Below, piece after piece: positions 3,102-34,386 of a stretch of 64,000 bases of DNA. The notes beneath the pieces are model-generated. The model made no database searches, was not told the origin of the DNA, and saw only the letters and a program-made list of their open reading frames with translations. Position 1 is the stretch's first letter. The number at the start of each line of letters is the position of its first letter. Origin of the DNA: Eledone cirrhosa (Eukaryota); the NCBI GenBank assembly GCA_964016885.1, contig OZ024742.1, positions 132,804,001-132,868,000 of the forward strand, written 5' to 3'. The translations under genes were made by a program, and so were the position numbers.

Positions 3102-3163
<62 letters not shown>

Positions 3164-3296
3164 TAGATACATACACACATATTTACATATATATGTAAAT
3201 ACATGTATATATATATACATACACACACATATATATATATATAAGTATATATATATATATATACATACATATATAAGTATATATATATATATATAT
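2874..3296. repeat. (TA)n microsatellite, one of many in the window
   Basis: Direct reading; similar tracts at ~10.8, 11.9-12.3, 14.2, 15.2-16.4, 36.7, 57.8 and 60.2 kb. Confidence 0.99.
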
Positions 3297-3359
3297 TAAC
3301 ATAAATGTAAGTATGTATGTATACGTACATACATATATGTATACAGACGTACAGTAGCA

Positions 3360-3397
<38 letters not shown>

Positions 3398-3548
3398 CAG
3401 GTACACATACATATATGTACGTATCAGTTTAGCGGACGCTTATTATAGCGCCCGCTTTGTTCGTTTGTAAACAAACTGAACAGCCTGAATTTATGCCGTA
3501 CGGTGTTAAGGCAACCACGTCACCTTTTTGTTCAACACTGACACAGGA

Positions 3549-3591
3549 ACGATGTACTAGTTTCAAGCTTGTTAGCTATCATCAGCATCGT
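3549..3591 (-). ncRNA. Minimal type I hammerhead ribozyme
   Basis: ACGATG-CTGATGA-tAGCTaacaAGCTt-GAAA-CTAG-TA-CATCGT: 6-bp stem I, intact core, palindromic ACTAGT stem III, GUA triplet. Confidence 0.9.
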
Positions 3592-3823
3592 ATACCCTTC
3601 TGCCAGATGGTTGAACGTTCGATAGTATATACTTTCCTTATGAAAATTAACGGCTGAGCAGCCTAATTTGCATATCGAGTGAGTCCGGCCAGGCGTACCG
3701 AGAACGACAAGTTGTAATAAAATGAAAACGAAATGTCATTTCTCACTCTTAGTACGGCACTTACTTAAATGTAAGTATGTATGTATACGTACATACATAT
3801 ATGTATACAGACGTACAGTAGCA

Positions 3824-3893
<70 letters not shown>

Positions 3894-4122
3894 CAGGTAC
3901 ACATACATATATGTACGTATCAGTTTAGCGGACGCTTATTATAGCGCCCGCTTTGTTCGTTTGTAGAGTGAGAAATGAAATTTCGTTTTCATTTTATTAC
4001 AACTTGTCGTTCTCTGTACGCCTGGCCGGACTCACTCGATATGCAAATTAGGCTGCTCAGCCGTTAATTTTCATAAGGAAAGTATATACTTTCGAACGTT
4101 CAACCATCTGGCAGAAGGGTAT

Positions 4123-4165
4123 ACGATGCTGATGATAGCTAACAAGCTTGAAACTAGTACACCGT
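4123..4165 (+). ncRNA. Minimal type I hammerhead ribozyme, inverted copy
   Basis: ACGATG-CTGATGA-TAGCTAACAAGCTT-GAAACTAGTA-CACCGT; one stem I mismatch. Confidence 0.85.
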
Positions 4166-4316
4166 TCCTGTGTCAGTGTTGAACAAAAAGGTGACGTGGT
4201 TGCCTTAACACCGTACGGCATAAATTCAGGCTGTTCAGTTCGTTTACAAACGAACAAAGCGGGCGCTATAATAAGCGTCCGCTAAACTGATACGTACATA
4301 TATGTATGTGTACCTG

Positions 4317-4380
<64 letters not shown>

Positions 4381-4578
4381 TGCTACTGTACGTCTGTATA
4401 CATATATGTATGTACGTATACATACATACTTACATTTAAGTAAGTGCCGTACTAAGAGTGAGAAATGAAATTTCGTTTTCATTTTATTACAACTTATATT
4501 AACATACATATATGTATATATATATGTATATAAATACATATATGTATATTTACATATATATATAAATACATATATGTA

Positions 4579-4675
<97 letters not shown>

Positions 4676-7675: not shown

Positions 7676-7743
7676 CCTCTTTACCAGAGGTTTCCCGAAT
7701 AAGACGAATACAAGAAACGTCCGCATTCGTTCGTCAGACAAGG
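7676..7743 (-). ncRNA. Type I hammerhead motif
   Basis: CCTTGT-CTGACGA-aCGAAT..ATTCGg-GAAA-CCtctGG-TA-AAGAGG; core intact, one stem I mismatch. Confidence 0.7.
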
Positions 7744-12339: not shown

Positions 12340-12463
12340 TTGCCATTCTGAGTTCAAATCCCGCCGAGGTTAACTTTGCCTTTCATCCTTACGGGGTCGA
12401 TAAAATAAAGTACCAGTAATGTACTGGGTAATTGCTGGCCTTGTGCCAAAGTAGAAACAATTA
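12340..12463 (+). mobile_element. tRNA-derived SINE, 5'-truncated
   Basis: B-box GAGTTCAAATCC then CCGAGGTTAACTTTGCCTTTCATCCTTACGGGGTCGATAAAATAAAGTACC, matching the 45323 copy. Confidence 0.85.
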
Positions 12464-15521: not shown

Positions 15522-15868
15522 AATATTAATACAAAATATTAATAAATATAGACATTCATGTAATCAAATATATTTTATTATATATATTTCGTATGTACTG
15601 TGCTGTTTCCTCAGTACATCCTCATCAGATAAACTATATAAATTGATGTATAACATACCTCACCTGTGCTGATGCTTCAATTCCAGTCTTGGCAGATTGC
15701 TAGGACTGGAATTGAACCATCAGCACAATTGAGGTATGTCATACATCAATTTATATATTTTATCTGATGAGGACGTACTGAGGAAACAGCACACTACCTC
15801 AGAAATATATATAATAAAATATATTTGATGACATGAATGTCTATATTTATTAATAATTTTAATTAATA
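15522..15868. mobile_element. Fold-back element with two divergent HHRs
   Basis: ~170-bp inverted arms centred near 15696; HHRs at 15568-15639 (-) and 15753-15824 (+) with CTGATGA, GAAA-TATATA-TA and a long AT-rich stem I. Confidence 0.85.
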
Positions 15869-15872
15869 TGTA

Positions 15873-23327: not shown

Positions 23328-25244
23328 GCCTATTGCTCTGTATGCGTATGTGTATATAATATAAAATAAACTGGAGCGAAGAGTGCGTAAAACAATGTCA
23401 TAAAGTTGTAGGAATCTCAAAGGTGGAAATTGCTGTGGAATAGCCACCTGCTATGATGAATAGCAAAGAGTCAGGTTCAAATATAACATTTTATGAACGG
23501 AAGAATGATCAGAAGTGGCGAGGGAGAAACACAGAATAAAAGGAATAGAGCGTTCAGCATATGATGAGTGATTGGAGAGAAATAAAAAGAGAAAAGAAAA
23601 GAGTGAATGTTGGTGATGAAAATTTGACCTGGAGAATTAAGAATGATAAAACAGTTAAGAAATATTGAGAAACGTAAAATAGTTAATGAAATACAGCGCC
23701 GTAAACATCTTTTCAAGTTCCTTCTAGCTAAGTGATATTTTGCTAAGTCGCAGCTCAGTAAGGATGTTTATACTGCTCTCTTGTCTTGTTTTGTTTTATA
23801 TATCTACCAGCGACATGCCAACAGAAATTTTGATTCTGATGAGTGGGCATTTACCTATCGACTTATTTTTCGAAAATGGAACGATGTGGGGTGGGGGATG
23901 GTCAATTTGGGGGAGAATTTACTGCTCTTTCTATCATCCATTTACTGTCCGTTCGTTATGCTATCGATATATAGACTGTGAAACACTTCTTCAGGTTTCA
24001 CTCACTCCACTCCCCTCTCTCTTTTACTAACTAAATCGTAATGTGTTTTTTTACATTTGTCTGAGTGTGGCTTATCTTTCTCTCTCTGTTTCTGTATTTC
24101 AGTGTATGCGTGTGTTACAGTATGGCCAACAACGCAACACAGACTGACATGTGATTGTTATTGTTATTATTATTCTGACTCACTCACCAACAACTCCTTT
24201 TCCTAAAAATGGAGGCGAGGAGGGAGGGACACCTTGGAGTTACAGATAAGCAGATCTCTAGGGTTCGCGTTAGAAAATTGTTTCCTATGAATTATTGTGT
24301 GCTTTAAAGTCATGTGACCGCCAGCATGGTCGAAATCACCCGTTTTCCCGAAAACCGAATCGGAGGTGAGGGGGAATCCTATAAATATGTGTGCAAATAC
24401 GACCACGCTGTCATGATTGCGCTACAAAAATCAAGTATGTCCCATGAGGTGTCCAACTTCGAACACAGCTGATAGATCATTAGTAGAGACGGCGGGGAAA
24501 GTGGTTGAACTTAAGATTTTCTCAGCCTCGGAGATTATTTCTATGAAATTTATCTTTTCTCGGATTTGTTATTTGTTTTCAACCGATTTGATGTCCGAAT
24601 CACTCGTCAACGACTCCTTTATATCTAATCGGTGGCGGGAAATGAGGGGGGGGGGGGGGGCTGGAGGTACACTTAAGCAGCTCTCATCCGTTGAAATTTA
24701 TAGAAAAGTCCCCGCTCATGATTGCAAATAAAATGTTTTTCCTGTGATTTTTCCTGTGTTTTCAACTAATTAGGCCTCCGACATGCTTGAAATCGCCTTC
24801 TTTTTCGTAAACTGAATGGGGCGGCAGCTGAGTATATGTACGATGTTTATTGCTTCGAACTCTGATCTGTCTGCTGATCTATCTGTTCTGTTTGATTTAT
24901 CACAAACACGTCATACCAACAGAAAGCTAAATTAAATTGTTCGAAACGTGAGAGTTGTTCAAGTGGAGGATGTGTGTGTGTGAACTTGTCTTGTATATCA
25001 GCTTTCATTAATTCCTTCTTCCAAACACTTCTATGCGCTTTTCCTTGATCTGATCCTCTCTCAATCATTTCTTTTCGTGCCTGCATCTTATCTAGTGGAT
25101 TGACTATCGCCTGACCGCCGGGCGCTGGTCTTTGGCCTGAGGTACACTTGGCCATCGCTGTCTTTGTCAACCTTTTGGCTGTTTTAACAGATGCTCTCTA
25201 GCATTGAGTTTCTCATGTTTCTGAGAATAAATAGATATATATAT

Positions 25245-25682
25245 ATAAATTAATAAAAATAATGAATAAAAACAAAGAAACACTTCCTTATATTAAAAAA
25301 TTCATCATTTTACGATCGTTTCTAGGATATATATGTGTGTGTTGGTATGTATATCATATAGATCTATGTAAAATGTTTACAAACTATCAGAGGGAATATA
25401 CATACCTACACATATATATGCTGTCTTCAGAAATAATGATATTTGTTTATTTCCATAAACAAATATCATTATTTCAATAAACAAATATCATTAATTCTGA
25501 AGACAGCATATATATGTGTAGGTATGTATATTCCCTCTGATAGTTTGTAAACATTTTACATAGATCTATATGATATACATACCAACACTAACATATATAT
25601 CCTAGAAACGATCGTAAAATGATGAATTTTTTAATATAAGGAACTGTTTCTTTGTTTTTATTCATTATTTTTATTAATTTAT
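25245..25682. mobile_element. Young fold-back element with two intact-core divergent HHRs
   Basis: ~205-bp nearly perfect inverted arms; TCATTA[T/A]TT-CTGAAGA..GAAA-CGATCG-TA-AAATGATGA at 25302-25439 (-) and 25488-25625 (+). Confidence 0.88.
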
Positions 25683-26048
25683 CTTGACTCTGTTTTCCTG
25701 TGTTTTTCATCGAAAACATTTTGAATACATCTTCTCTTTTCATGATATTTGGATTACATTGAGTTCTTCATACGCATTGGACACTACCGTATATTTTGGT
25801 AGATTTATCTATCTCTCTCTCTATATATATACAGTGCCCCGCAAAAGTTTACAACACATTAGGAAAAATGCGGTTTTAGGTATTTTTAATAAAGTTAGGG
25901 TAATGAAAATTTAACTACCGATAGAACATACAATGAGGCATTTAATGATACAATCATAGTTTTAAAAAAATAACAAGGAAATAACTCATGAAGAAAAATC
26001 AATATTTTTATAACGCAAAAGTTTACAACACATTTATTAAATCATCTC

Positions 26049-27055
26049 TTAATATTTCGTAGCGTAACCTTTGTTGCTAATTATAGCCTGCAGGGCGTTT
26101 GGAGTAGCCTCCTACAAACTTCTTGCATGTTTATTGGCTAATATTTATCCATTCTTCACAACAAATTTTCTTTAGTTCAGGGATATTTTGGGGTTTCTTT
26201 TTTTGAATTCTCTCCACAAATTTTCGATCGGGTTAAGATCTGGAGACTGACTTGGCCATTTTAGAACATTTATTCCATTCGTACTCAACCAAGATTGTGT
26301 TAGCTTTGCAGTATGCTTTGGATTGTTATCTTCTTGACAAAACCAACCTGGCTTTAAGCTGAGAGAATGTGCACTTTGATGTAAATTCCTTTGGAAAATA
26401 CCTCTATAATAAGTGCCACCCATTCTTCCTTCTATTATTTCAATATTTCCTACTCCTGTGGCACTAAAGCAACCCCAGACCATAATTGATCCACCTCCAA
26501 ATTTTACAGTTGGAATATTATTCTTCAGCGAATATTCAGTATCTTTCTTTCCCAGACTTTTGCCACAGCATTTCGACCAAAAATTCAATTTTTGTTTCGT
26601 CCGACTAAAGTACATCTTCCCAAAATGACGCAGGTTTGATGAGATGCTCATTTGCAAAGTTTAATCGACCAAGAACGTTGTTTCCTCGTAAGAAGTGATG
26701 TTTTCCTTGGAGACCTCGAGAAGATATTATATCGACGAAGTGAACGACTAATTGTATCTGTGCTCACTTTTACTCCACTTTCTTCTAGGTCATCCTGAAG
26801 ATTTTTAAGAGTACACCGGGGTTCGTTGCCAATCTTTCTCGTCAATAACCGAGCTGCACGTTCCGTTATCTTTCTAGGACAACAAGGACTAATTAGAGGA
26901 CAGATGGAATGATGAGATTTCCAGTGACGAATTGTACCAACTGAACTCAATGGCACATTTAACTGACAAGATATCTTTCTATAACCAACACCATTTGTAT
27001 GAAGGTCTACAATGCGTTTACAGAGGTCTTGATCAATCAGTTTATTTTTCCCCAT
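26049..27055 (-). pseudogene. Tc1 DD34E transposase, frameshifted
   Basis: MGKNK.. start, SDETK, PTVKFGGGSIMVWGCF, EDNNPKH to WPSQSPDLNPIE with 34 residues between D and E, ending GYATKY*. Confidence 0.95.
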
Positions 27056-27262
27056 ATTGTCCATGTTTACAGGACGGTTGTCAATGTTTACAGGATGGTT
27101 GTCAGACAAATAATGATGTAATGTTTTTAATAGTCCTTAGAAGTTACCTTAAACCTAATCTAGAACATTCTACTGAATATTAAATCTGAAAATTTAAGAA
27201 TTTTCTTGAAAAAAAGCGATAAATATAAAATGTGTTGTAAACTTTTGCGTTATAAACATATT

Positions 27263-27442
27263 TGTTTCTACTTTATGCACAAGTCCAGCAATTACCCAAT
27301 TCATTACTGGTACTTTATTTTATCGACCCCGTAAGGATGAAAGGCAAAGTCAACCTCGGCGGGATTTGAACTCAGATCGTAAAGGGACGTAACTATCCTG
27401 GAAAGCATGGCGTCCGACCCTCTACCGATACTGCCAATCCAC
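27263..27442 (-). mobile_element. SINE inserted in the Tc1 right TIR
   Basis: Full SINE flanked by imperfect TSD TAAACATATT/TAAAAATATT; the left TIR lacks it. Confidence 0.9.
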
Positions 27443-27625
27443 TAAAAATATTGATTTTTCTTCATGTGTTATTTCCTTGTTACTTTTTTAAAAATATGAT
27501 TGTATCATTAAATGCCTCACTATATGTTCTATCAGTAGTTAAATTTTCATTACCCTAACTTTATTAAAAATACCTAAAACTGCATTTTTCCTAATGTGTT
27601 GTAAACTTTTGCGGGGCACTGTATA

Positions 27626-34321: not shown

Positions 34322-34386
34322 TATTTCATTATACATATTTCAGGGATACCAAATTAAATTATGGTATGCCTTCATCAGACAAAATA
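34322..34386 (-). ncRNA. Type I hammerhead ribozyme
   Basis: TATTTTGT-CTGATGA-AGGcATACCA..TGGTATcCCT-GAAA-TATGTA-TA-ATGAAATA; 8-bp stem I including G-U pairs. Confidence 0.85.

Follow-up and report, generated by a model that had tools for sequence, protein, structure and literature searches.

Among Penelope-like elements (PLEs), those of the Hydra clade carry a DKT motif, a CxCX5C linker and CxxC/CxH motifs around E and N, and are targeted to (TA)n (Craig et al. 2021, PMC8557442). EN+ PLEs have been described with an inverted 5'-truncated copy and a tail on one end (PMC8557442; Arkhipova et al. 2013, PMC3846280), and self-priming has been proposed for Penelope palindromes (PMC3846280). Dual hammerheads on opposite strands, 100–700 bp apart, and solo motifs from truncated PLEs have also been reported (Cervera and de la Pena 2014, PMC4209133), the PLE hammerheads being of a minimal type I with weak cleavage, as dimers (PMC4209133; PMC6765202). 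Opposite-strand hammerhead pairs and one-sided tails are already published in this sense. For the Poseidon PAc protein, both strands were cut and extended in vitro, two internal start sites of the reverse transcriptase (RT) bounded the tail and uncleaved RNA was the main template (Frangieh et al. 2024, PMC11167929). How the inverted ends and the tail of PLEs form, and what role the hammerhead plays, are named as open questions (PMC8557442).

We analysed a window of 64,000 nucleotides from the Eledone cirrhosa genome of about 3 Gb (contig OZ024742.1, positions 132,804,001 to 132,868,000). An inverted-repeat search of the window returned a palindrome at 25245–25682 with inverted arms of 214 nt (25245–25458 and 25469–25682) that were 97% identical, and in-register alignment of 25245–25451 with 25476–25682 left 4 of 207 positions unlike. 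The palindrome with nearly identical arms proposed by an earlier sequence-only reading is thus real, while its boundaries were drawn too narrowly: the element continues to 25811 through a 129-nt tail that had been missed. The parent PLE had likewise been overlooked, of which the palindrome is a stub and not a stand-alone unit. With family positions counted from the short 3' end as 0, the left arm terminates at 0 and it is the right arm that bears the tail (Table 1). Contigs showed loose (TA)n ends at 25682 and 25811 and raw reads showed loose ends at 25811 (two other samples); with the tail on the right arm, these ends delimit the insertion as 25245–25811 in a (TA)n/(TC)n tract. We put a probability of about 0.8 on the reading that this locus is a 567-bp, non-coding, head-to-head pair of pLTRs in (TA)n, for which an RT-endonuclease likely primed both ends of the break.

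An assembly or polishing artefact was given the lowest credence of the explanations considered and is extremely unlikely. The centre was bridged by no contig or read of the runs covered and the left junction lies inside a skipped repeat, as such an artefact would allow; against this, the arms are not identical (4 positions and the ends differ), the flanks are unique sequence, hundreds of sister loci have varied centres, and both 3' ends, along with some opposite-strand joints, recur in raw reads from two other samples. A DNA transposon adjoins the tail (window 25832–27621), with 186-bp inverted ends at 96%, TA on each side and broken transposase-like frames on the minus strand; from its motifs we take it to be Tc1/mariner-like.

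Table 1. Features of the palindrome locus (window positions; family positions counted from the short 3' end)
Feature	Position	Strand	Remarks
Left-end target microsatellite, (AT)n	25235..25247	.	Overlaps arm end by microhomology; read from sequence
Left arm, pLTR segment	25245..25451	-	Family positions -208 to 0; short end = 25245
Left type I hammerhead motif	25302..25439	-	Stem I 5' strand 25439-25431; CUGAAGA 25430-25424; GAAACGAUCGUA 25322-25311; predicted cut after 25311; 9-bp stem I, family majority form
Fold-back axis	25451..25454	.	4-nt loop TTCC within innermost perfect 21-bp inverted repeat
22-bp tandem duplication	25454..25497	+	Units 25454-25475 and 25476-25497; TTTC microhomology
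Right arm, pLTR segment	25476..25682	+	As far as short-end position
Right type I hammerhead motif	25488..25625	+	Stem I 25488-25496/25617-25625, private A-A mismatch at 25494; CUGAAGA 25497-25503; stem II region 25504-25604 (101 nt); GAAACGAUCGUA 25605-25616; predicted cut after 25616
Family position -194, A of TC^ATTA	25490; 25437	+; -	Putative main capped RNA start; SINE target site
One-sided tail	25683..25811	+	129 nt; element's 5' leader, ahead of ATG
Small hairpin	25784..25802	+	Fold of tail, shortly before its end
Right (tail) end target microsatellite, (TC)n(TA)n	25812..25831	.	

The right arm had 1,021 candidate matches in the genome, the best 40 of which were scored and were 97–100% identical, and an exact 25-nt core pattern had 3,811 genome matches (control, 0). 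Upstream, most copies extend into UTR and ORF sequence. Full copies are arranged as pLTR, tail, ATG, an 817-aa ORF, a microsatellite-rich UTR and pLTR, with a unit of 4,581 bp in L066, and the pLTRs come from partial tandems in which the arm flanks the ORF on both sides (L066, L067, L068, L069, L070 and L072). Intact 817-aa ORFs are present in the genome. As read from the sequence, the ORF has RT-like motifs and C-terminal GIY-YIG-like motifs, and the L066 protein contains SDKTG, CNCRNKANC and CRLC..E..N..CNH. Searches of Pfam and PDB with the ORF gave no hit; its Atlas look-alikes scored 0.96–0.99, with GIY-YIG on 26–50% of members, RVT_1 on 18% in one cluster and an HTH_animal domain on part of the members. 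On these sequence features, the palindrome locus is classed as a non-coding, head-to-head stub of a high-copy Penelope-like retroelement with Hydra-clade motifs, and in itself it is ordinary, one of thousands of stubs.

The parent family shares with the Hydra clade the C-terminal GIY-YIG-type domain, DKT, CxCX5C, CxxC/CxH, the (TA)n target and the presence of a hammerhead, whereas it has RWR in place of RWK and a unit of 4.6 kb against generally under 3 kb (PMC8557442); a search of one supplementary file of that study for the core motif and the N-terminal peptide gave no match. With EN+ PLEs it has in common partial-tandem pLTRs, a head-to-head inverted copy, a tail on one end, a microsatellite target and a pLTR hammerhead, but the tail of the palindrome locus is about 129 nt long compared with 30–40 nt, and both of its arms are stubs without coding sequence, unlike the elements described (PMC8557442, PMC3846280). 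Two putative start sites around the tail are shared with Poseidon PAc, and the family fits the extension of both strands and the uncleaved template reported for that protein; Poseidon belongs to another clade, and the available text of PMC11167929 holds no analysis of the end pairing of inverted insertions or of a cap signature. Neither a cap signature nor end pairing in PLEs was reported in the titles and abstract openings of the openly accessible papers covered, which makes for a weak negative. Animal non-LTR retrozymes (bioRxiv 10.64898/2026.07.22.740005) resemble the locus in having a type I hammerhead, PLE derivation and no coding capacity. We rejected this identity for the locus, which has one motif per strand, no same-strand tandem array of monomers, and a parent that is an autonomous element encoding its own protein.

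To describe the ends of sister copies we used every locus (78 in all) in which the first 100 of 3,811 listed matches lie, a sample from one contig (C1) limited to copies with the exact core. The copies stop at 0 or at about +137, with microsatellite next in each case, and the (TA)n junction at the short end of the palindrome locus recurs among them. Tails stop at +137 in microsatellite in 44 of 48 cases and run on into the ORF leader in the other 4; an apparent third 3' end at +207 to +245 was discarded, being produced by misalignment of (TA)n. Both ends could be assigned by automatic chaining in 31 inverted loci, 29 of which pair one short end with one tail, one two short ends and one two tails. 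Beyond these 31, L048, L057 and L087 were assigned to short plus tail by eye and L050 ends at +35. The two same-end loci duplicate host flank as well, as a fold-back at the DNA level would; L045 and L129 are such inverted duplications, with equal ends and host flank included. A few loci have an inverted piece from inside the ORF (L077, L097 and L099), as in L1-type twin priming, and not from the pLTR end.

These pairings bear on the explanation implied by the sequence-only reading, in which one cDNA folds back, primes itself, copies itself into the second arm and re-primes at the centre. A snap-back of this kind is favoured by the axis, where 21 bp of perfect inverted repeat enclose a 4-nt loop, by short tandem re-priming repeats at several other palindrome centres and by the variants shared, often to identity, by the arms of a locus; at the palindrome locus only, the left arm is also almost wholly contained in the right arm plus the duplication. 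However, bases missing from the template cannot appear in a snap-back copy, and among the 29 short-plus-tail loci the tail-less arm extends more than 16 nt further 5' in 9 although the other arm has the tail, the tailed arm does so in 11 and the two are about equal in 9, so both arms were likely copied from RNA. The true inverted duplications of DNA, L045 and L129, share host flank and have equal ends, unlike the locus. The subfamily variants common to the arms within one locus point to one source per locus. Homogenisation of arms by gene conversion was considered and none was seen, with 1 shared private variant in 28 symmetric loci. At the family level snap-back is largely refuted, and for the palindrome locus we hold it to be unlikely.

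The tandem duplication at the centre does exist and spans 22 bp. Its use as a marker of snap-back failed, because the sequence occurs at exactly two places in the genome, the other being the non-inverted copy L073, and it is better read as a slip than as proof of snap-back. The expectation of re-priming scars held to the extent that such repeats occur at other centres, but simple snap-back did not follow since the arms are not nested. The locus has the closest arms among the two-core palindromes listed in the window, yet it cannot be called the youngest: 12 of 20 sister palindromes have no arm substitutions, compared with 4 of 207 positions here. Two of the four differences (25589–25590) correspond to variants in other copies and could reflect two templates.

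Priming of both break ends, the reading that we prefer, builds on the assignment to the family, on 3' ends fixed at 0 and about +137 and paired one of each, on arms that are not nested and on the (TA)n target. One break end would be primed at the short site and the other at the tail end, both cDNAs would be extended towards the 5' end of the RNA, and microhomology would then join them, one arm undergoing a 22-nt slip. For the family at large, the template would likely be an RNA with a capped, uncut start, copied onto both sides of one DNA break.

Evidence on the start of that RNA comes from family position -194, the 5' edge of stem I, which reads TC^ATTATTTCTG. Fold-backs exactly at this edge were found at 301 loci, compared with 7 at the cleavage site, 4 genome-wide at -208 (the axis of the palindrome locus), none at the control position -235 and none at another C^ATTATT site, where fewer loci were eligible. 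Twenty of the -194 fold-backs were fetched, and 18 were short-plus-tail palindromes of the parent family, one had a broken arm and one an unrelated arm. Seventy-four -194 ends were joined to AT-rich sequence, and the base preceding them was G in 29, the native C in 21, A in 14 and T in 10; non-native G at -1 thus compares with a background of 6–8% in AT-rich context. Among the native-C ends, 13 of 21 read TATATTTC, and five such loci that were fetched comprised four members of a subfamily not truncated there and one fold-back. The 8 G loci among 20 fetched had unrelated host flanks (6 solo copies, 1 truncated piece and 1 fold-back), and, in the first 50 listed fold-backs, 18 had a multi-base centre, with G on 18 of their 36 arm ends.

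These counts suggest that -194 is likely the capped RNA start of the parent family, marked by a non-native G. Most stubs end at this first base of stem I, which makes uncleaved RNA the likely template, and a start here would make the hammerhead the first 130 nt of the mRNA. Counting against it, the central junction of the palindrome locus shows no clean single G. Both arms of this locus extend 14–18 nt beyond -194, which suggests a template from a minor start or a read-through RNA. Inverted arms starting a few bases from the hammerhead cut site (-62 to -67) were observed in L133–L136 and at L066 6887–7001, a hint that cleaved RNA is sometimes a template.

The same position is a frequent target of a very abundant tRNA-like SINE (131,597 exact 3' ends), which inserts at (C/T)^ATTATT with duplications. 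It was seen at -194 in L047, L063, L068, L076, L078, L080, L081, L097, L099 and L130, and in the window at 12378 (+), 45420 (+) and other places. The SINE splits stem I of the hammerhead in about 10% of copies, at some loci in one arm only, with 397 junctions at -194. What looked like a subfamily with an insertion at -194 turned out to consist of independent SINE insertions, and special targeting of the hammerhead was set aside as well, since an occupancy of about 10% fits the general preference; CATTATT sites number roughly 1–2 million genome-wide by extrapolation. With 397 junctions at this target, later nicking may inflate the -194 count and could create some of the fold-backs.

Carried further, such nicking becomes an explanation of its own, in which the centres of longer head-to-head insertions were deleted later, for example after LINE-endonuclease nicks at C^ATTATT in both arms. 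Two points would favour it: the instability of long inverted repeats, and the entry of the SINE into C^ATTATT in about 10% of copies with varied duplications, matching the genome-wide (C/T)^ATTATT preference. Centre deletion nevertheless leaves unexplained the non-native G at -1 in solo copies and the G-terminated repeats of the first 13 nt; the element's other C^ATTATT site has no fold-backs, with the smaller number of eligible loci noted above, the -194 palindromes have the most similar arms, and the axis of the palindrome locus is not at a C^ATTATT site. We regard it as very improbable, more so than snap-back.

Returning to priming at both break ends, we lean slightly towards a broader reading in which the junctions of the family record the insertion itself, with a capped start at base 1 of stem I, priming from uncleaved RNA, the cap copied as G and the hammerhead as a decapping switch. 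A single RNP would prime both ends of the (TA)n break from uncleaved RNA, at two fixed RNA positions separated by about 130 nt, copy the cap as an extra G and link the two cDNAs head to head. On this view the decapping switch would act at the 5' terminus, removing the first ~128 nt, probably only as a dimer, and would separate template RNA from cleaved RNA. The interest lies in this family-level evidence on priming and start site and not in the single locus: end pairing, non-nesting and the G signature yield concrete predictions of a start site to the base, two priming sites and an uncleaved template.

The hammerhead motifs were located by a descriptor scan, which found CUGAAGA and GAAACGAUCGUA on each strand with 101 nt between them; the sequence at the predicted GUA cleavage site is AAAUGAUG. 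Both arms contain the core CUGANGA / GAAA / NUH with stems I–III. The claim of intact cores therefore stands for the core motifs on both strands but not for a fully canonical core, the pair next to it at 10.1/11.1, canonically G-C, being C-A in almost every one of 34 aligned copies. Minimal type I metazoan PLE hammerheads are alike in type, in their short palindromic helix III and in predicted use as dimers, and differ in having G10.1-C11.1 and helices of 6–8 bp where the locus has a stem II region of ~101 nt (PMC4209133). The long stem II put forward earlier was borne out, its hairpin folding well (z -2.7 in the right arm and -4.5 in the left), and the region measured 81–133 nt over 129 motifs, two of them from other families. 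That short-range hammerhead searches miss the motifs was also correct: Rfam gave 0 hits at the gathering threshold and no hammerhead family among 36 weak hits, and the weak miRNA hits merely reflect the stem II hairpin. Covariation was limited in a family too young for it, with 95% of cells paired, 3 pairs with two-sided change and 24 of 500 shuffles equally high.

The left arm forms 9 stem I pairs (one U-G), as the sequence-only reading had it, and the right arm, in which the A at 25494 disrupts a pair, only 8. This A was found in 0 of 98 other arms, and the position was T in 427/430 and 301/302 reads of one run. Stem III is the palindrome ACGAUCGU, which as a monomer forms 2 bp; by energy evaluation the monomer hairpin (2 bp with a 4-nt loop) comes to +2.4 kcal/mol compared with -10.0 kcal/mol for an 8-bp intermolecular duplex, and the monomer helix assumed earlier had to be given up. 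Stem III is predicted to need a second copy of the same strand (dimer type), and the two motifs of the locus cannot pair in cis. A read-through transcript of either strand is predicted to fold into a duplex of about 200 bp (-323 and -325 kcal/mol), which would bury the hammerhead motif. With its motifs on opposite strands, the predicted need of stem III for a second same-strand copy and the ~200 bp of dsRNA expected from read-through, the locus is probably inert as a ribozyme.

For the same locus as bench material, the proposal that it was the best candidate does not survive: the suggested transcript is from the right arm, whose private A at 25494 breaks stem I, and a monomer cleavage assay of this defective arm could fail without refuting the motif. 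The left-arm motif (minus strand) has the form of the family majority. In view of the private stem I mismatch, the dimer-type stem III and the predicted dsRNA fold of read-through RNA, the palindrome locus is a poor candidate. A young subfamily (L173–L190), marked by a GUU triplet and changed stems I and II, accounts for 12 of the 20 fetched -194 palindromes; its arms are mostly identical and two of its loci repeat the first 13 nt ending in G. This subfamily is better bench material.

Hammerhead-like motifs or palindromes of unrelated sequence also occur in the window at 15523–15869, 34330–34378 (-), 57667–57721 (+), 7682–7737 (-), 63319–63435 (-), 59862–60159 and 3106–4638, most of the whole set having stem II regions of 30–36 nt. 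Two further unrelated hammerhead-like motifs, L135:500–661 (-) and L096:4869–5009 (-), have long stem II regions and a similar GAAACGAU(C/U)GU stem III, so a long stem II is not confined to the Penelope-like family of the palindrome.
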